A DNA stretch of 36,237 nucleotides from Pseudomonas phage vB_PaeM-D14A, in sequence record BK061475.1. One strand, written 5' to 3'. The notes below the pieces were generated by a model. That model was not told where the DNA came from, made no database searches, and saw nothing but the letters and a program-made list of their open reading frames with translations. The stretch's first letter is position 1, and each line of letters begins with the position of its first letter. Shown one piece after another: positions 20,062-30,428 of this stretch. Position numbers and translations under genes: made by a program.

Positions 20062-20502
20062 ATGATGCTGTCCCTCGGGATGTTCGTCTTCAGCCTGCAC
20101 ACGCTGGCCTATCAGGAGTTTCAGCGACAGACCGAGTGGCGACACGCCAGCAGCAGCCGCATCGGTGCCCAGCCGGCGCGCCAGTTCGTCGGCCGCGGCG
20201 ACGACGCGATCACCCTGCCTGGCGTGCTGCTGCCGGAGCTGGCCGGCAGCGCGTTGAGCCTGGACGTGCTGCGGCAGATGGCTGACACCGGGTCGGCCTG
20301 GCCCATGGTCGAGGGCACCGGACGCATCTACGGCCTGTGGGTGATCGAGCGCGTCACCGAGACGCGGACACTCTTCTTCGCCGACGGCACCCCGCGGCGG
20401 ATCGAGTTCTCCCTCGAGCTCAAGCGCATCGACGACGGCCGCACCGATCTGCTCGGCTCGGTCCTCGGTACCGCCAGCAACCTGCTGAGACGCATCCTGT
20501 GA
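20062..20502 (+). CDS. U: tail protein U
   Basis: 146 aa. Position. Confidence 0.75.
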   Translation: MMLSLGMFVFSLHTLAYQEFQRQTEWRHASSSRIGAQPARQFVGRGDDAITLPGVLLPELAGSALSLDVLRQMADTGSAWPMVEGTGRIYGLWVIERVTETRTLFFADGTPRRIEFSLELKRIDDGRTDLLGSVLGTASNLLRRIL

Positions 20503-21773
20503 TCGATGCCGCCCTCGCCCGCGTAACGGGCTACCTGACCAGCGCAGTCGAGCAGCTGCAGCGCGACGCCGGCTACCCGGTGCCGGTGTTCCGGCTCACG
20601 GTCGACGGCAACGACATCGCCCAGCTCATCAGCCCTCGGCTGATCGCCCTGGATCTGACCGACAATCGCGGCCTCGAGGCCGATCAGTTGAGCGTGACAC
20701 TCAGCGATCATGACGGGCTGCTCGCGATCCCCCCGCGCGGCGCCGTGCTGCACCTCTGGCTGGGCTGGAGTGACAGCGGACTGGTCGACAAGGGCACCTA
20801 CACCGTCGACGAAACCGAGCACAGCGGCGCGCCGGACGTGCTCAGCATCCGCGCCCGCTCAGCGGACCTGCGCAAGGGCCTGAAGGTCAAGCGCGAACGC
20901 AGCTGGAGCAGCCCGAAGACGCTGGGCGACGTACTCACCGACATCGCCCTCGGCAACAACCTGAAGCCGGTGCTCGCGCCGGCGCTGGCGGGCCTGCCGA
21001 TCCTGCAGCTGGACCAGGCCAACGAGTCCGACGCCAACTTGCTGACCCGCCTGGGCGAGGACTTCGACGCGGTGGCTACCGTGAAAGCCGGCTGCCTGCT
21101 CTGCCTGCCGGCCGGTGGCGGCAAGACCGCCAGTGGCCTGGCGCTGCCGCACATCACCCTCACCCGCCAGGATGGCGACCAGCACCGCTACCTGCAGGCC
21201 GACCGCGACAGCTACGACGGCGTGCGCGCGTACTTCTACGACGTGAACAGCGCGAAGAAGCAGGAGGCCATCGCCGGTGCCAAAGGCGACAACCTCAAGG
21301 ACCTGCGCCACACCTACAGCGACCGCCAGAGCGCCCTGCGCGCCGCCCGCGCCGAGTGGAACCGCCTACAGCGTGGCAGCGCCACGCTCAGCTACGTGCT
21401 CGCCAAGGGCCGGCCGGACCTGATCCCGGAGCTGACCTACACCCTGCAGGGCGTGAAGACGGAGATCGATGCGATCATCTGGTACGGCGGCAATGTGCAG
21501 CACAGCCTCAGCGCCGACGGCGGCTACATCACCAGCCTGGAGATGGAAAGCAAGCTGCCCGAGGACCTGGTCAGCGACCTGGCCGACGACACCGGCGGCG
21601 ACTACACCGGCATCATCGCCTACTTCCGCGACGAGAAGAGCGGGAAGGAGAAGACCATCACCGCGGGAGACCAGAGCAAGCCGCGCCGCCTGCGCTACCT
21701 GTACAGCACCAAGGCTAGCGCGAAGCGGGCTGTCGATCGGGAATGGGGGAGACTGCAACCACTGTCAAGATGA
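20499..21773 (+). CDS. D: tail protein D (late gene D)
   Basis: Probable GTG start at 20499 overlapping the U stop (GTGA). About 424 aa. The long 5' extension of ORF 20337 runs antisense across U and was rejected. Confidence 0.7.
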   Translation: MIDAALARVTGYLTSAVEQLQRDAGYPVPVFRLTVDGNDIAQLISPRLIALDLTDNRGLEADQLSVTLSDHDGLLAIPPRGAVLHLWLGWSDSGLVDKGTYTVDETEHSGAPDVLSIRARSADLRKGLKVKRERSWSSPKTLGDVLTDIALGNNLKPVLAPALAGLPILQLDQANESDANLLTRLGEDFDAVATVKAGCLLCLPAGGGKTASGLALPHITLTRQDGDQHRYLQADRDSYDGVRAYFYDVNSAKKQEAIAGAKGDNLKDLRHTYSDRQSALRAARAEWNRLQRGSATLSYVLAKGRPDLIPELTYTLQGVKTEIDAIIWYGGNVQHSLSADGGYITSLEMESKLPEDLVSDLADDTGGDYTGIIAYFRDEKSGKEKTITAGDQSKPRRLRYLYSTKASAKRAVDREWGRLQPLSR

Positions 21774-21905
21774 TCAAAGACCACAGAACGGCCCCTCCTG
21801 TGTTTTTTACGCCAAAAGGTCTCCAACAGCGCCCCCATTAGTCAGGCAAAATGCCAGAGTGAGAATTTGTCTCCCTCCCCCCCTTTCCCCCCTTCGTTTG
21901 CCCCG

Positions 21906-21911
21906 TATAAT
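21906..21911 (+). promoter_or_regulatory. TATAAT -10 hexamer upstream of the methyltransferase gene
   Basis: Perfect TATAAT 26 bp upstream of the ATG. A C-rich tract precedes it and there is no clear -35. Confidence 0.35.
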
Positions 21912-21936
21912 CGCGACCGTCAATAGGGGGTAATGC

Positions 21937-22935
21937 ATGCCAACAGCAGTTTCACTTTTTTCTGGATGTGGAGGGTCCGACGCAGGAGTCATCGCGGCGG
22001 GCTTCGACGTCATCATGGCAAACGACATCCTCCCCTACGCCCGAGACGTGTATTTGGCGAATTTTCCGGAAACCGACTATCGCCTAGGTGACGTGTGCGA
22101 CATTTCCGACTTTCCGGCAGCCGATTTACTTGTGGGTTGCTACCCTTGCCAAGGCTTCAGCCAAGGAGGAGCTCGCGAGGCCAACCGAAAAATCAATACC
22201 CTGTACCTTGAGTTCGCTCGCGCCTTAAGCATCATTCAGCCCAGAGCTTTCATTGCCGAGAACGTCTCTGGTCTACGTCGTAGCACCTACAGGCATCTAC
22301 TGGAAGACCAACTAACAAAGTTCGCGGAGGCCGGCGCACACGGTTATAGCGTATATTGGAAGCAGATAAATGCTCATGAGTACGGGGTCGCACAAGAAAG
22401 AAAGCGTGTAGTAATCGTAGGCATTCGCAAAGATTTGAATGCCGAATACAAATTCCCGGCCCCTACTCATGGCCCAAACGCTGAGCAACCATATTTCAAC
22501 ATTGCTCAAGCTCTGGAAGGACTACCTGAGTGGCCAGAAGGGGAGTTCTGCGAGGACCCCTTTCACTGGTATTACCTGTCCCGCAATCGGCGCAGAGATT
22601 GGTGTGAAATCAGCAAGACGATTGTCAGTCACATGCGCCACATGCCGCTGCATCCCAGTAGCCCCAAGCTACATAGAATCCATACTGATAAGTGGGAGTT
22701 TGAAGTAGATGAACCTGCCAGAAGGTTCTCCTTCAGGGAAGCGGCGCGCTTGCAAGGGTTTATGCCTCGCTATACTACTCATGGTGGAGACCTGATCTTC
22801 CCTGAAACCGTTGAAAGCAGTCAAAAAAATATTGAATACAACATTTTGCGACAGCGCTACAAGGTTGTAGGAAACGCTGTACCACCGCCTATGTTCGAGG
22901 CGGTGGCATCAGCACTACCAAACATCTGGCCTTAG
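21937..22935 (+). CDS. DNA (cytosine-5)-methyltransferase (low-GC island)
   Basis: Motif I LFSGCGG, motif IV GCYPCQGFSQ (catalytic PCQ), motif VI ENV, C-terminal VVGNAVPPPM (motif X). GC is clearly lower than the flanks. Confidence 0.9.
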   Translation: MPTAVSLFSGCGGSDAGVIAAGFDVIMANDILPYARDVYLANFPETDYRLGDVCDISDFPAADLLVGCYPCQGFSQGGAREANRKINTLYLEFARALSIIQPRAFIAENVSGLRRSTYRHLLEDQLTKFAEAGAHGYSVYWKQINAHEYGVAQERKRVVIVGIRKDLNAEYKFPAPTHGPNAEQPYFNIAQALEGLPEWPEGEFCEDPFHWYYLSRNRRRDWCEISKTIVSHMRHMPLHPSSPKLHRIHTDKWEFEVDEPARRFSFREAARLQGFMPRYTTHGGDLIFPETVESSQKNIEYNILRQRYKVVGNAVPPPMFEAVASALPNIWP

Positions 22936-23834
22936 ACCAAATCGAGTCTTTCTTCTAGAAAATTTGCTAGGATTTCTGGAGGATCAATATTCCTCCAGTC
23001 ATCCTCAAAACTAATATTTTTAACAATCCTCAACCTATCAAAAATCAACGTATCCCCTACCTCTCCCTCAACAGCCCATGTTCCCCTGTTATCTCGAAAG
23101 CTATGCGGAATAAATATAAGCTGCATCCAAGGATGTGTGGCATGTATATACCTCAACCGACCATGAGATATCTCACTCTGCTTTCTTGACCACTCTAAGC
23201 GTGAGCATGCACACTGAGCTAATGCAGATGGAATATTTCGGCACTCATACTCATCAAGAGACAGCCAAGCAACTAAGTCGATACCCCCATCACCTGAGTC
23301 TCTAGCGCGAAATGTTTCTTCATTACAAAGACCAACCGCCCCGATGTCCTTAGCTAGCTGATTGATTCGCTCCCATTTAGCCCCCCTGTATTCTGTTTCG
23401 TTCTTACCAAAAGCCTTGACTTTAGCTGCAACTGGAAATACTGAACGCAACGTAACAAGGGAAACCCTTTCAAAGGCATCAGTAAGCGAACCATTTATAT
23501 ACTGCCGATCAAAAAATGGGAGATTAGCACACAACAATATTAACACGTACAACTTATGCTCTTCTGGTAGAGTCTCAGGTGCACTAATAGTCCTCCTCCC
23601 AATGTCCAAAGAGAATGGATAACTACCTCCAAATGCTTCTACTCGCCACGCGATATGGTTAAAACAATCATCCAACTCTTGGGCTGATATCTTGCTCCCA
23701 CCAACATCTCTGATTTGGTCAGAGATGGTTTCTCTCGAGCACACTCGATCCTGCGTTACCAAGCATAGTATCTCAGCAAAATCCGCAATAGTGTGAACAT
23801 CCCTATCTCGTGGAGCATCCAGGTTGAGCATCAC
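22932..23834 (-). CDS. hypothetical protein with an Mrr-like GDGGID nuclease motif (candidate restriction/effector subunit)
   Basis: 300 aa, low GC. Motif RDSGDGGIDLVAW resembles the Mrr_cat PD-(D/E)xK signature. ATG at 23831 overlaps the upstream gene's stop. The 3' end overlaps the methyltransferase stop convergently. Confidence 0.5.
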   Translation of the reverse strand: MMLNLDAPRDRDVHTIADFAEILCLVTQDRVCSRETISDQIRDVGGSKISAQELDDCFNHIAWRVEAFGGSYPFSLDIGRRTISAPETLPEEHKLYVLILLCANLPFFDRQYINGSLTDAFERVSLVTLRSVFPVAAKVKAFGKNETEYRGAKWERINQLAKDIGAVGLCNEETFRARDSGDGGIDLVAWLSLDEYECRNIPSALAQCACSRLEWSRKQSEISHGRLRYIHATHPWMQLIFIPHSFRDNRGTWAVEGEVGDTLIFDRLRIVKNISFEDDWRNIDPPEILANFLEERLDLV

Positions 23835-24928
23835 TCTTCTCCAGACATCACATCTTGGATAGAAGCAAAAAGAGCAGAAGCCGACTTTTTAATCCGCTCA
23901 GCCTGATTTAAGTCAGGCTGATCCAGCCCTTCCACCGCACTAAGCGTAAACTGAGCGTTCTTTATGCTACTCTCAGCCTCTCTTAGAAGGTGTCGTAACG
24001 CCTCTAGCGGCCCTTCCGTATATAGGTCAGCATGTGCTAAAGGCTCGCCATGTCTAAGTACTTCCAGAGCGCGATCATTCGCCACAACCCTCGACAATTT
24101 ATCAAAGTTGCGCGACTCACCTAACACTGTACTTGGCCCATGACTTTTGTCGAAAACCCACCCAAAAAACTCTACGAACTCCTTTTCCTTCAAACCAGCC
24201 GCATCAACATCAGACGCACCTTTAATACCAATAAAGTCACAAATATTAGGATAACCAATACCAGTAGTAAGCAAAGAGAAAGGTATATCATCCTCTTCCA
24301 GCTTTAGACTTACTAGCAAACCAGTATCTCTAGCATGTTCCAAAAGCTTGAGCCCTGTTAGGAGTTTTGCAACATGTGAAGATTTACTTCCAATCTCTTT
24401 AGCCAGAGCTTTATGTGCATCCGCATGACCTTTATCTGCATGACGCTCTCGCAGTTGCTTCAGATATCTAGCCTTAGCTAAGGAGTCCCACTCTTTGATG
24501 CCAGTTATGTGGCGATACCCTAGATAACTAAGTATGTTATCCCGATCATCAAACTCCAAGACCGGAATATCATTAACCTTCTGCCTTGCAGATTCTCTAG
24601 CCTGCTTAACTTGACCAGCCATTACTGGAGGAGGGCTACTGCTTGCCAGAAGTTTTAAGGCACCAAGCCGCCGGTTACCTTCCACAACTGTATAACCACC
24701 ACCTGCACGAGGAACGACCAGCAGGGGCTCACCTAAGAAGAATCCATGCTCCCCGATAGATAGCATTAGCTCTATCAAGTTACACTCTAGGAGCAAGTAC
24801 TTTATTACATCCTCATCAGGCTTATTTCGCAAAGCCACTGGAAGCCGAGGGTTATCAGGATCAAAATGAAGCTCATTCAAACTAACGCTTGCAAGCTTTG
24901 TCATAACCAGTCCTTTACACAGTAACAA
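23831..24928 (-). CDS. ParB/Srx-fold nuclease-domain protein (candidate defence/restriction component)
   Basis: N-terminal YTVVEGNRRLGALKLL is the ParB GxRR box. Low GC. The likely start is the ATG at 24904, preceded by AAAGGA. 357-365 aa. Confidence 0.55.
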   Translation of the reverse strand: MLLCKGLVMTKLASVSLNELHFDPDNPRLPVALRNKPDEDVIKYLLLECNLIELMLSIGEHGFFLGEPLLVVPRAGGGYTVVEGNRRLGALKLLASSSPPPVMAGQVKQARESARQKVNDIPVLEFDDRDNILSYLGYRHITGIKEWDSLAKARYLKQLRERHADKGHADAHKALAKEIGSKSSHVAKLLTGLKLLEHARDTGLLVSLKLEEDDIPFSLLTTGIGYPNICDFIGIKGASDVDAAGLKEKEFVEFFGWVFDKSHGPSTVLGESRNFDKLSRVVANDRALEVLRHGEPLAHADLYTEGPLEALRHLLREAESSIKNAQFTLSAVEGLDQPDLNQAERIKKSASALFASIQDVMSGEE

Positions 24929-24960
24929 GGCTGCGAAGCCTACCCATCTATTAGTCCTAG

Positions 24961-25311
24961 TCAGGCATCCGCGGCACAGGCTAGGCGCTTCTGATCGTAG
25001 TCCTTCTTATGTCCCTGTAGTTCAGGCAATGGTTCGTCCATATCCGCCTGTACAACCAGATCGGACAGTACCCACCCCAGCGCCTCGTAGGCTGCAAGGC
25101 AAACATCGCTGGCACTCCTACGGATACCTGGTCGGTACCGATCCAGATCGCCGAACACCTCGGTCACTTGGTCAACACTCGAGGCCTGCAACGCGTCCAA
25201 CATCCTCTGGTGAAGGTTGTTCATCAATTCGATCTGGGCGGCCGAGTCAGCCACCGCAGTACATGAAACCATCAGTCCGACCGCAGCGACCGTTCCCTTG
25301 AGCCAGTTCAT
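24961..25311 (-). CDS. hypothetical secreted protein (Sec signal peptide)
   Basis: 116 aa. N-terminal VAAVGLMVSCTAVA-DS signal. High GC. Confidence 0.5.
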   Translation of the reverse strand: MNWLKGTVAAVGLMVSCTAVADSAAQIELMNNLHQRMLDALQASSVDQVTEVFGDLDRYRPGIRRSASDVCLAAYEALGWVLSDLVVQADMDEPLPELQGHKKDYDQKRLACAADA

Positions 25312-27477: not shown

Positions 27478-27711
27478 ATGAGCGGCCACATTTCAATCAC
27501 CGTCGAAGTCGACCAGAACCAGGCTGAGAAGTACCTGCTCTGGCTGGTCAGCCAGTACGAAGCCGCCATGGCCGAGTGCTGGTACGACGATCGCTACCGC
27601 TATACGCCGCAGGGTCTACTCGGCAAGCGCATCCTCGAGGACCGCCCACACATTGCCGGCATCTGCCGGACCATCCGCGAACTGCGCAAGCAGATTCGGG
27701 GGCGCGCATGA
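27478..27711 (+). CDS. hypothetical protein
   Basis: 77 aa. Stop overlaps the primase start. Confidence 0.45.
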   Translation: MSGHISITVEVDQNQAEKYLLWLVSQYEAAMAECWYDDRYRYTPQGLLGKRILEDRPHIAGICRTIRELRKQIRGRA

Positions 27712-30428
27712 AGGAAATGGACTGCGAGCTCAAGGCCGACGTGCTGCGCCGCCTACAGGATCAGTACGGACTGACACCGATCAAGGGCACGAAATACATG
27801 CGCAAGGGCGAGTGCCCGACGTGCGGCAAAAAGGAGCTCTACACCCTGGTCGACAGCCCCTGGTTCATCCGCTGCGGGCGCGGCAAGTGCGGCGACACCT
27901 GGCACATCAAGGAAATCTACCCGGAGCTCTTCGACGACTGGAGCAAGCGAGCGCCGGCCACCGACAAGGACCCCGTCGCCTCGGCCCGGGCGTACCTGGC
28001 CCATGCCCGCGGCTTCGACCTGACGCTGATCGATGGCTGGTACAGCCAGGAAAACTACTGGGACCGCGACCTTGAGATCGGTAGCGCGACAGTACGCTTC
28101 CCGCTGAAGAAAGGCGGCTACTGGGAACGCCTGATCGATCGTCCGAGCCGCTTCGGCAAGAAGAAGGCGCGCTTCAAGCCGGGCGACAGCCCGCGCGGCG
28201 TCTGGTGGTGCCCACCCAGCGTCGACCTGCAGGAGGTGAAGGAGCTGTGGATCGTCGAAGGTATCTTCGACGCCATCGCGCTGCTGCACCACGGCATTGA
28301 CGCCGTGTCGGCCATGAGTTCCAACGCCTTCCCCGAGCAGTCTTTGCGCGAACTCGCGACAGCCCGTGGCGGCAAGCTGCCGAAACTGATTTGGGCGCTG
28401 GACAACGAACCCGGCGCCCACAGGTACACCCGGCGGTGGGTGACCGAGGCACGTGCCCTGGGCTACGTCTGCGAAGCGGCCCAACTACCGCAGCGCAACA
28501 ACCGCAAATTCGACTGGAACGACCTGCACCAGCGCTGGATGTTCATCGATGACGCAGCCGAGCGCGTCGCGCAGATCGAGAAAGACCTCAAGACCGCACG
28601 TCATGAGGGCGCGCTGCTGATCGCCGAGAGTGCCGCCGAGAAGGCCCTGCTGATGTACGACTGGGGCAAGCGCGGTGAATTCCACTTCCGCTTCGCCAAC
28701 CGCCTCTACTGGTTCAAGTTGGATATCGAGAAGTTCAACAAGGCCATGCAGAGCCTGGAGGACAGCGACAACCACGACGACCAATTGCTGAACCAGAAAC
28801 AGATGCGCGACAAGGCCCTGCAGCAAGCCGGCGGCGTCGTGGAAATCGCCAACTGCTTCCCCCAGGCCCTGTACTTCCAGCGCAACGAGGTCACAGACGA
28901 AAGCTGGTACTACTTCCGCATCGATCGCCCCGACGACGAGAGCGTGAAGAACACCTTCACCAGCGCCCAGGTCGCGGCGGCCAGCGAGTTCAAGAAGCGC
29001 CTGCTCGGCGTGGCGGCCGGGGCGATCTTCACCGGCAGCGGCGCGCAGCTCGACCAGATCATGAAGCTGCAACTCACCGGCCTGAAGACGGTGGCCACCA
29101 TCGATTACCTGGGCTACAGCCGGGAGCATGCCTGCTACGTTCTGGGCGACGTGGCGGTGCGCGGCGGCGTGATCGAGAAGGCCAACGCCGAAGACTTCTT
29201 CGAGTTCCAGAAGCTGCGCCTGAAGACCCTGCAGCGCTCGATCAAGCTGCAGATCGCCACCGACGCCAAGGACTACCGCCCCGAGTGGCTGGACTGGCTG
29301 TGGACCTGCTTCGGCGCCAAGGGCCTGGTGGCGCTGGCATTCTGGTTCGGCTCGCTGTTCGCGGAGCAGATCCGCGCCGAGTTCCAGTCCTTTCCGTTCC
29401 TCGAGGCCACCGGCGAGGCCGGTGCCGGCAAGTCCACGCTGATCACCTTCCTGTGGAAGCTGCTCGGCCGGGCGGACGAGGAAGGCCAGGACCCGTCGAA
29501 AATGACCAAGGCGGGCCTGCGCCGCTGGCTGACCCAGCTGTCGAACATGCCCATGGTCATGCTCGAGGCCGACCGCAGCGACAACAGCCGCGCCGGTGGC
29601 GCCGCCAAGTCCTTCGACTGGGACGAGTTCAAGCCGCTGTTCAACGGCCGCGCGTTGGGCGTGACCGGCCAGAAGACCGCCGGCAACGAGACCTACGAGC
29701 CACCCTTCCGCGGCACCCTGGTGATGAGCCAGAACGCCACGGTGCAGGCCTCCGAAGCGATCATGACCCGTATCGTGAAGCTGCACTTCATTCGCCCGGA
29801 AATCACCCGCGAGAGCCAGGCCGCGGCCGACAACCTCAACCACCTGGGCGTGCTCGAGGTCAGCCACTTCCTGCTAATGGCCATCCGTGCCGAGGCCCGT
29901 GTGCTGGAGTGCTTCCGCGAGCGGCTGAAGGTTCACAGCGCGACGCTGCGCGGTCTGAAGCAGATTCGTATCGAGCGGCTGATACTCAACCACGCGCAGA
30001 TGATGGCCCTGGTCGACGCGCTGCGCCTGGTGGTGCCGCTGTCCGAGCACCAGCTCGCCTGCGCTCAGCAGACCCTGATGACGATGGCCCTGGAGCGCCA
30101 GGACGCTGTCAACGCCGACGCGCCCGAGGTGGCCGAGTTCTGGGAGGTCTACGACTACCTCGAAAACCTCAGCGAAGAGCCGGTGCTCAACCACAGCAAG
30201 AACCCCGGAACCATCGCCATCAACCTTAATGAGTTCGTGAAGCTGGCCGCCGACCACCGCCAGAAGGTGGCCGACGCGGCAACCCTGCGCGACCTGCTGA
30301 AAGAGTCCCGCCGGCACAAATTCATCGAATACAAGGCCGTCGACAGCGCAGTGCGCGCGGCACATGCCCGCCAGAACCCTTTCACCAACCGACCCAGTAC
30401 CGTCAAGTGCTGGATTTTCCAAGCCTGA
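27708..30428 (+). CDS. replication primase-helicase (zinc ribbon + Toprim primase + Walker-A NTPase; P4-alpha-like)
   Basis: ATG at 27708 (MKEMDCELK...). CPTCGKK...CGRGKCGD zinc ribbon. Toprim-like ELWIVEGIFDAIAL...ALDNEPGAH. Walker A GEAGAGKST. 906 aa. Confidence 0.75.
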   Translation: MKEMDCELKADVLRRLQDQYGLTPIKGTKYMRKGECPTCGKKELYTLVDSPWFIRCGRGKCGDTWHIKEIYPELFDDWSKRAPATDKDPVASARAYLAHARGFDLTLIDGWYSQENYWDRDLEIGSATVRFPLKKGGYWERLIDRPSRFGKKKARFKPGDSPRGVWWCPPSVDLQEVKELWIVEGIFDAIALLHHGIDAVSAMSSNAFPEQSLRELATARGGKLPKLIWALDNEPGAHRYTRRWVTEARALGYVCEAAQLPQRNNRKFDWNDLHQRWMFIDDAAERVAQIEKDLKTARHEGALLIAESAAEKALLMYDWGKRGEFHFRFANRLYWFKLDIEKFNKAMQSLEDSDNHDDQLLNQKQMRDKALQQAGGVVEIANCFPQALYFQRNEVTDESWYYFRIDRPDDESVKNTFTSAQVAAASEFKKRLLGVAAGAIFTGSGAQLDQIMKLQLTGLKTVATIDYLGYSREHACYVLGDVAVRGGVIEKANAEDFFEFQKLRLKTLQRSIKLQIATDAKDYRPEWLDWLWTCFGAKGLVALAFWFGSLFAEQIRAEFQSFPFLEATGEAGAGKSTLITFLWKLLGRADEEGQDPSKMTKAGLRRWLTQLSNMPMVMLEADRSDNSRAGGAAKSFDWDEFKPLFNGRALGVTGQKTAGNETYEPPFRGTLVMSQNATVQASEAIMTRIVKLHFIRPEITRESQAAADNLNHLGVLEVSHFLLMAIRAEARVLECFRERLKVHSATLRGLKQIRIERLILNHAQMMALVDALRLVVPLSEHQLACAQQTLMTMALERQDAVNADAPEVAEFWEVYDYLENLSEEPVLNHSKNPGTIAINLNEFVKLAADHRQKVADAATLRDLLKESRRHKFIEYKAVDSAVRAAHARQNPFTNRPSTVKCWIFQA

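Follow-up and report, generated by a model that had tools for sequence, protein, structure and literature searches.

A conserved gene triad in a Pseudomonas aeruginosa prophage links a ParB-like protein to a putative nuclease and a C5-cytosine methyltransferase: a possible restriction-modification system

Introduction

What is a ParB-fold protein likely to do outside a partition context? The question is raised by a gene in a 36,237-nucleotide stretch of Pseudomonas phage vB_PaeM-D14A (sequence record BK061475.1; in what follows, the window is this whole stretch), the host element being an integrated phiCTX/P2-like prophage of Pseudomonas aeruginosa. ParB-type cytidine triphosphate (CTP) switches were for a long time known only from chromosome and plasmid segregation. 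Orphan ParB-fold proteins without a known role are abundant on mobile elements according to a 2025 survey (PMC12704722). An initial annotation of the window had recognised a ParB/Srx fold with a GNRR box, had suggested nicking or CTP switching as its activity, and had proposed that the gene serves as sensor or effector in a two-gene defence pair.

The unit turns out to be one of three genes rather than two. It comprises the ParB-like gene, the gene directly downstream of it (here called the partner) and a convergent C5-cytosine DNA methyltransferase (C5-MTase) gene, and we are confident that these form one functional cassette. The convergent C5-MTase indicates restriction-modification (R-M), and the reading we prefer, with somewhat more belief than doubt, is that the ParB-like gene is the first cistron of a three-gene R-M-like defence cassette carried as prophage cargo. 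We did not find the triad described in the literature.

Results

The pair and its methylase are linked across phyla

A scan that took one genome per species returned 80 loci, which include Proteobacteria, Chloroflexota, Acidobacteriota, Bacteroidota, Firmicutes, Verrucomicrobiota and other phyla; synteny was counted in 87 loci, all distinct. In 84 of them the partner comes directly after the ParB-like gene; of the other three, two are contig ends and one is a degraded copy. A C5-MTase gene lies no more than 300 bp from the pair in 69 of these 84 loci (convergent in 35, co-directional downstream in 28, upstream in six) and within 4.5 kb in 77, and three of the seven without one are cut by contig ends. 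The family is large: at 50% identity it comprises 4896 clusters at E<1e-3 and 800 clusters at E<1e-30.

The complete triad, with the methylase convergent, was present in all five genomic contexts that were looked up. Three of these are prophages, namely two further P2-like prophages with the triad in the slot between gene D and the immunity repressor and one Marinobacter prophage; the others are an Agrobacterium island, beside a Type I R-M system, and a bare three-gene insertion among housekeeping genes of Pseudoluteimonas. The ParB-like gene sits in mobile settings of the defence type, in line with the initial annotation's reading of a defence role. Identity to the window copy correlates closely between the ParB-like protein and the partner (r=0.93) and only loosely with that of the methylase (about 0.4), so that the first two evolve as a unit, with the methylase as an exchangeable module.

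In about 18 loci a canonical Vsr gene adjoins the triad. Vsr, methylase and pair then make up the classic R-M-V arrangement, in which the pair takes the place of R. We place the pair in this position because of the near-obligate methylase linkage, the neighbouring Vsr and the location of related copies at the old/tin hotspot of P2-like phages. One feature expected of an R-M system is present, a complete DNA methyltransferase (PF00145 over its full length in the window copy) tightly linked to a putative nuclease gene.

The same neighbours bear on a reading that gives the pair no defence role, in which it services the damage caused by C5-methylation, either by repairing T:G mismatches in place of Vsr or by clearing stalled methylase-DNA complexes. 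Such a role would fit the observations that the pair is seen only with C5-cytosine methylases, of several families, and never with an N6 or N4 methylase alone, and that it also occurs alongside complete R-M systems (HaeIII, NotI-like), which have a restriction endonuclease (REase) of their own. However, a substitute for Vsr should be mutually exclusive with vsr, and the co-occurrence of the two rules this version out. Two proteins of 650 amino acids (aa) in total, with a nucleoside triphosphate (NTP) switch, would also be heavy equipment for short-patch repair, and the cassette sits in prophage defence hotspots (PMC9122126). A repair function is therefore very unlikely.

After the triad, the Marinobacter prophage has a gene for SRAP (abasic-site crosslinking peptidase) and a second complete R-M-V system, made up of an MvaI/BcnI REase, a C5-methylase and Vsr. 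The whole is a small defence island inside the prophage.

The ParB-like protein has a ParB N-domain, a helix-turn-helix and an invariant loop

The ParB/Srx fold and the GNRR box of the N-terminal part are upheld by several comparisons. EGNRR is invariant in 85 of 85 family members and aligns with GERRLRA of Helicobacter pylori ParB (4umk) and GERRFRA of Spo0J. When a profile of 27 homologues was compared with Bacillus subtilis Spo0J by hhalign, a match of 91% probability over 191 columns was obtained, the residue-level correspondences being approximate. TIGR00180 (ParB/RepB/Spo0J) matches with E=5e-9 and 36.1 bits (cut-off 58.45), Pfam ParB_N with E=0.018, which is below cut-off, and NCBIfam nucleoid_noc with 16.5 bits (cut-off 315), whilst the PD-Lambda-5_A profiles of PADLOC cover residues 9-165 with E down to 6.5e-20. 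The PADLOC candidate model PDC-M38A (715 positions) matches residues 51-350 (E=4e-14), so that a related family has already been flagged as a candidate. In PHROGs the protein falls into phrog_3694 (E=3e-88), of unknown function. It belongs to the ParB/Srx superfamily at fold level, with a GxxR/GxRR phosphate-binding box, and from its sequence it is likely to have an NTP pocket. Residues kept in 84 or 85 of the 85 members are D15, N18-P19-R20, E75-G76-N77-R78-R79, G129, R131-H132, T134-G135, W139 and K144.

The initial annotation had recognised no motif beyond the first 120 aa, and here it needs revision: a ParB/KorB-type helix-turn-helix (HTH) DNA-binding domain follows at about residues 121-200, and an HTH after the N-domain is a feature of partition ParBs. 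The C-terminal region, of about 160 residues, gave no match; it is helical and by analogy with ParB clamps could dimerise. Apart from GNRR, no motif of the family is as invariant as G-Y-R-H-I-T-G. Residues 131-136 within it are the sole stretch with a predicted local distance difference test score (pLDDT) below 50 in the AlphaFold model, and the YRHITG loop is a candidate for a ligand or partner interface. Fusions to telling domains were absent from the top 150 proteins of a profile search, all of which are about 355-400 aa long.

With a canonical ParB-type HTH present, a DNA-binding, NTP-gated subunit is likelier than the stand-alone nickase envisaged earlier, and the nuclease of the system is most likely to be the 299-aa partner protein. 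The suggested comparison with DndB and the DGQHR proteins proved not to apply, since the motif is EGNRR and none of 27 ParB-like members has a Pfam match to DndB or DUF262; by these signatures the protein is outside the DndB/DUF262 clade.

The alignment of N-domain and HTH to Spo0J over 191 columns could be taken to mean that the gene is a partition remnant, a ParB that has lost its ParA. We give this next to no weight and regard it as ruled out. The gene lies in an integrated P2-like prophage, and its constant neighbours are a nuclease and a methylase. ParA was nowhere found: a ParA-type Walker A motif (KGGxGK[ST], as a regular expression) is absent from the window and from 88 related loci, the called neighbours of the looked-up contexts include no ParA Pfam domain, and the ParB-like protein itself lacks the ParA-binding motif LG[KR]GL ([LFI]G[KR]G[LFI]). 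It also scores well below the ParB (36 against 58 bits) and Noc cut-offs. The claim of a non-partition context is thus sound, and as judged from these profiles and motifs the protein is not a partition ParB or Noc.

The HTH could instead serve transcriptional control. In a classical Type II R-M system, the partner alone would be the REase, its winged helix reading the DNA and its PD-(D/E)xK domain cutting it, and the ParB-like protein would be only a KorB/DndB-like controller of the operon, comparable to a C-protein but large. Against this, the stop/start overlap of 1-4 nt and the co-evolution of the two proteins suggest a stoichiometric complex, and an NTP pocket and RHITG loop that are invariant across phyla are more than is usual for controllers. 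A palindromic operator was not found near the operon (5' of the ParB-like gene no promoter or operator rose above chance, and the only palindromes are short and inside coding sequence), and the methylase is on the other strand and freely exchanged. We consider a controller role unlikely.

The partner resembles Mrr and MspJI nucleases

The partner has an N-terminal winged helix and a C-terminal Mrr/MspJI-like PD-(D/E)xK nuclease fold; its REase-fold matches are NgoMIV, N.BspD6I, MspJI, AspBHI and LlaBIII. It gave no match in Pfam or NCBIfam, nor in PADLOC at E<=0.1, PD-lambda-5_B included, and in PHROGs it is phrog_3984, function unknown. Neither Mrr_cat nor Mrr_N of Pfam matched any of 31 partner members, and a profile search for domain fusions returned only proteins of about 300 aa without a Pfam domain. 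In the nuclease core, SGDGGVD of MspJI has its counterpart in a putative metal-binding motif whose residues are nearly invariant (D181 in 81/83, G183 in 82/83, D185 in 83/83 members). On the Q206-C207-A208-C209 strand, the position of the canonical lysine is Ala, Gly or Thr in all members. Q206 is conserved, as is K217 on the helix after this strand, and K217 may substitute for the missing lysine. An Fe-S or Zn site made by the conserved cysteines is not supported: C23 is Cys in just 57 of 85 members and C209 is Ala in phage 12474III.

With such a fold, the pair might act as a Type IV, Mrr/GmrSD-like nuclease whose target is modified DNA of foreign origin. The methylase would then be functionally separate and might, for example, shield phage DNA from other restriction systems. 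Mrr itself combines a winged helix and a catalytic core in about 300 aa, which is the layout of the partner, and the only relatives of the partner in the PDB by sequence and Foldseek are MspJI and AspBHI, which depend on 5-methylcytosine (5mC). A ParB/Srx-fold NTPase joined to a nuclease is the design of GmrSD, BrxU and SspE, and four loci have the pair without a methylase. On the other hand, strict methylase synteny, with conserved orientations in many phyla, is not expected of a Type IV system; next to a 5mC methylase, a nuclease that depends on 5mC would be toxic to its own cell unless the two enzymes had disjoint specificities; and the bare Pseudoluteimonas insertion moved as a single unit. 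The partner also differs from Mrr and MspJI in lacking Mrr_cat and Mrr_N matches, in the replacement of its catalytic lysine and in being linked to a methylase rather than solitary. A Type IV function is accordingly quite unlikely.

The methylase

The methylase matches M.HaeIII (1dct) with E=5e-38 over residues 4-283, target recognition domain (TRD) included, and the two have the signature SRNRxRxW...T...LHP..P in common. This signature marks a single group that holds 61 of the 75 linked methylases. A GGCC-like site is a reasonable guess from this resemblance. The best PADLOC matches are Druantia DruM models (E=2e-104) and DISARM DrmMII, and other Druantia or DISARM genes are absent.

Methylase and partner converge, and their stop codons overlap at 22932-22935 (TAG on the plus strand, TAA on the minus strand). 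In many related loci, too, the two genes overlap or are separated by no more than about 30 bp; overlapping or near-touching ends suggest control by convergent transcription.

Gene ends and prophage setting

The open reading frame (ORF) first assigned to the ParB-like protein is real; at its maximum it spans 23831..24928 on the minus strand, reaching TTG at 24928. AAGGA is found 6 nt 5' of the ATG at 24904, which is the likely start. With this start the product is identical (357 aa, 100% identity) to P0001, a P. aeruginosa protein that NCBI lists as 'ParB N-terminal domain-containing protein'. The translational coupling inferred earlier from a GTGATG overlap is also correct. At the junction (...GAG TGA TG CTC...) the TGA stop overlaps the partner's GTG by 4 nt (GTGA) or its ATG by 1 nt (TGATG). 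The ATG at 23831 is the more likely start of the partner because homologues, which use it, open with 'ML.LD'.

The triad makes up a low-GC insert between tail gene D and a homologue of phiCTX orf30 (Table 1). In phiCTX this slot holds the unrelated orf28 and orf29. When the island was used as a DNA-level query against phage records, matches were limited to the flanking phiCTX-like sequence; the Wphi copy was found at protein level. The pair lies downstream of the immunity repressor and on its strand. This arrangement, with no separate promoter found, makes expression in the lysogen plausible, and transcription of the pair is probably shared with the operon of the immunity repressor.

The orf30 homologue, immediately 5' of the ParB-like gene, encodes 116 aa with a signal-peptide or lipoprotein-like N-terminus (MNWLKGTVAAVGLMVSCTAV). 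It belongs to phrog_26546, of unknown function, and its match to Pfam CDC37_C looks spurious. Farther along the window lies the gene of a replication protein of 950 aa, which falls into phrog_1139, a family of phage DNA primases (E=0), and does not match a P2 gpA-type nickase; a Halopseudomonas prophage (L001) has a similar gene of 940 aa without a Pfam match, and a Chromobacterium prophage (L002) has a gpA-type gene.

Table 1. Coordinates of the triad, its motifs, neighbouring genes and selected related loci
Feature	Position	Strand	Size or residues	Remarks
Low-GC insert	21790..24976		3.2 kb	three genes only; GC 45-50% vs about 65%
C5-cytosine DNA methyltransferase	21937..22935	plus	332 aa	PF00145 full length, E=1.2e-57
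Partner gene	22932..23831	minus	299 aa from ATG	300 aa from GTG at 23834
Q206-C207-A208-C209 strand	23205..23216	minus	206-209	counterpart of Q-x-K in MspJI and Mrr
G180-D181-G-G183-I-D185	23277..23294	minus	180-185	putative metal-binding motif of nuclease core
ParB-like gene	23831..24904	minus	357 aa	from ATG at 24904
All-helical C-terminal domain			about 201-357	long helical hairpin at its end
ParB/KorB-type HTH domain	24305-24544	minus	about 121-200	DNA-binding
Loop G129-Y-R131-H132-I-T134-G135-I	24497..24520	minus	129-136	invariant; absent from Spo0J (insertion)
ParB/Srx N-domain	24545-24904	minus	1-120	NTP-binding
E75-G76-N77-R78-R79	24668-24682	minus	75-79	ParB Box II / P-motif (GxRR) arginine patch
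Tail gene D	20337-21773			flank of insert
phiCTX orf30 homologue	24961-25311		116 aa	flank of insert
Replication protein	27576-30428		950 aa	
Marinobacter prophage defence genes	L005:5618-9899			after triad: SRAP, second R-M-V
NotI-like REase, alphaproteobacteria	L017:4813-5850, L018:7999-9120, L088:6757-7680			between pair and methylase
HaeIII, Acetatifactor genomes	L083:4802-5842, L074:3683-5806			between pair and methylase; one an M-R HaeIII fusion
N6_Mtase-domain protein, betaproteobacteria	L025:7964-11110, L031:8006-11131, L047:8082-11195		about 1040 aa	between partner and C5-methylase; Vsr gene past C5-methylase

Copies at the P2 hotspot

Orthologous triads lie at the P2 old/tin hotspot next to cos in coliphage Wphi, vB_EcoM-12474III, Yersinia phage L-413C and HQ103. 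In Wphi the genes are orf98, orf96 and mth (L007, NC_005056 29419-32589). Relative to the window copy, the methylase is 63% identical, the ParB-like protein 39% and the partner 28-30%. That this hotspot harbours defence systems has been documented (PMC9122126), and the main text of that study by Rousset et al. mentions neither ParB nor a methylase at it. A triad of the Wphi type is present in 104 of 5426 complete Escherichia coli genomes, including those of E. coli W, KO11FL and LY180. In E. coli W (NC_017664 4335180-4338360) it lies in the Wphi prophage in place of P2 old and tin. A 1967 paper, going by its title as cited (ref. 22 of PMC1904263), deals with restriction of lambda in strain W. 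The E. coli annotation of the three genes reads 'ParB N-terminal domain-containing protein', 'hypothetical protein' and 'DNA cytosine methyltransferase'.

Discussion

A restriction module of two proteins?

From gene order and domain content, it seems reasonably likely that the triad restricts unmethylated DNA. The balance of the evidence tips towards an R-M system with a novel two-protein restriction module. In such a system the methylase would label the DNA of host and prophage, with a GGCC-like sequence as its probable site. The ParB-like protein would bind DNA through its HTH, with an NTP (CTP or another nucleotide) as the switch. By analogy with ParB and KorB, NTP binding could close the N-domains into a clamp that leaves its loading site and slides, and this clamp would carry or license the partner nuclease, which would then cut unmethylated incoming DNA. 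Communication would be long-range and NTP-dependent, as in the Type III and Type ISP enzymes, with the ParB switch in place of a helicase motor.

We put forward this sliding-clamp mechanism only tentatively. The wider idea, that the triad represents a class of NTP-dependent restriction enzymes of a new kind, in which a ParB-type switch clamp loads at unmethylated sites, slides and licenses an Mrr-like nuclease, is likewise speculative, and we hold it with a good deal more doubt than belief. The clamp might even be handed over by the C5-methylase itself, and the catalytic lysine of the nuclease would have been relocated. A transfer of this kind would account for a pair that keeps exclusively to C5-MTases and yet is indifferent to their TRDs.

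Several observations weigh against an R-M function of this kind or against parts of the proposed mechanism. Four loci (L028, L049, L063 and L086) have the pair without a C5-MTase in about 5 kb of flank, which is left unexplained if the pair is lethal without methylation. Five loci have an additional classical REase between pair and methylase, of NotI-like or HaeIII type (Table 1), and the pair would be redundant there if it were itself the REase. In three betaproteobacterial loci, partner and C5-methylase are separated by an N6_Mtase-domain protein of about 1040 aa, which may be a Type IIG/IIL-like enzyme. The pair is accompanied by methylases of at least seven sequence groups. In L017 and L018 the pair is 50% and 45% identical to that of the window and its HTH recognition helix is nearly identical, but the methylase is unrelated. 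As for the switch, E111 and N112 of B. subtilis ParB are required for CTP hydrolysis and N-gate engagement. In the hhalign alignment these two residues of the ENLQR motif face a variable residue and a Phe, so that neither clamp closure nor hydrolysis is assured. The nucleotide specificity of ParB folds is, moreover, unpredictable from sequence (PMC12704722).

Two side observations concern these unusual loci. Neighbours of the pair in the methylase-less loci are genes for Uma2 and a HipA-like kinase in L028, an AAA_21 ATPase in L049, and a small S-adenosylmethionine (SAM)-methyltransferase and a ResIII helicase in L086. NotI-like and HaeIII enzymes both have sites that contain GGCC, and one methylase would then serve two nucleases.

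How the target is read bears on the exchange of methylases. Co-variation of the HTH recognition helix with the TRD type of the methylase was not seen. It follows from L017 and L018 that either a few residues are enough to retune specificity or the pair depends on the methylase for sequence reading. A pair that reads no sequence itself would also be a reason for its occurrence with C5 enzymes only.

Relation to known systems

The order of domains in the ParB-like protein is that of the ParB, KorB and Noc clamps, with an N-domain containing Box I (NPR) and Box II (GxRR), then an HTH, then a helical C-terminal region. It differs from them in that ParA and the ParA motif are lacking, family scores are below cut-off, ENLQR is unconserved and the YRHITG insertion is present instead; nuclease and methylase are what constantly accompanies it.

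In Type III and Type ISP enzymes (EcoP15I, LlaGI/LlaBIII) an Mrr-like nuclease is licensed after one-dimensional movement. The likeness of the triad to these is one of inferred mechanism: it has no helicase or superfamily 2 (SF2) motor, its NTP module is a ParB switch, and its methylase is a stand-alone C5 enzyme, not an N6 Mod subunit. In GmrSD, BrxU, SspE and TgvAB a ParB/Srx-fold NTP-binding domain is coupled to a DNA nuclease in anti-phage restriction. These are DGQHR-type DUF262 proteins with an HNH (DUF1524) nuclease, modification-dependent and without a cognate methylase, whereas the triad has an EGNRR motif, an HTH, a separate PD-(D/E)xK protein and a linked methylase. TgvAB is cited in PMC12704722 (ref. 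78).

ParB-fold proteins that serve DNA modification or restriction have precedents in PD-lambda-5 (PMC9519451), in the ParB activator of phage 5mYOX (PMC13229309), in the system of PMC10164549 and in the ParB-CTPase folds surveyed in PMC12704722. PD-lambda-5 is prophage-borne and is regarded by its authors as a compacted combination of R-M and abortive infection with a methyltransferase (Vassallo et al. 2022, PMC9519451). Like the triad, it is found in P2-type prophages, and its A profile matches the N-terminal 160 or so residues of the ParB-like protein. Unlike it, the triad has a separate C5 methylase and a partner that matches no PD-lambda-5_B. The A profiles are 428-592 positions long, of which only 1 to about 165 are matched and another 270-430 are not, and the HTH and helical domain of the ParB-like protein are left uncovered. 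Membership of PD-lambda-5 is ruled out, as only the ParB N-domain is common and there is no B subunit. The 5mYOX activator ParB, DpdB and DndB are, similarly, orphan ParB folds that lie beside a DNA-acting enzyme and are required by it or regulate it (PMC13229309, PMC10164549, PMC11662687). None of them has both a PD-(D/E)xK nuclease and a C5-MTase as partners, and the 5mYOX protein has no obvious DNA-binding domain and remains active when its NTP site is mutated (PMC13229309).

Implications

Pfam, PHROGs and PGAP assign no function to the ParB-like protein or the partner, and automatic annotation could mislabel the triad, with the methylase as DruM and the ParB-like protein as PD-Lambda-5_A. 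The triad is carried by laboratory and industrial strains such as E. coli W, KO11FL and LY180, where it may affect transformation and phage sensitivity. The lambda restriction reported for E. coli W in 1967 may be linked to its Wphi prophage; if the Wphi copy is active, the triad could underlie that restriction. If our reading is true, the triad would be a new R-M architecture, in which long-range communication along DNA is achieved by a nucleotide-gated clamp instead of an ATP motor, and it offers one large family of orphan ParB proteins a testable role.

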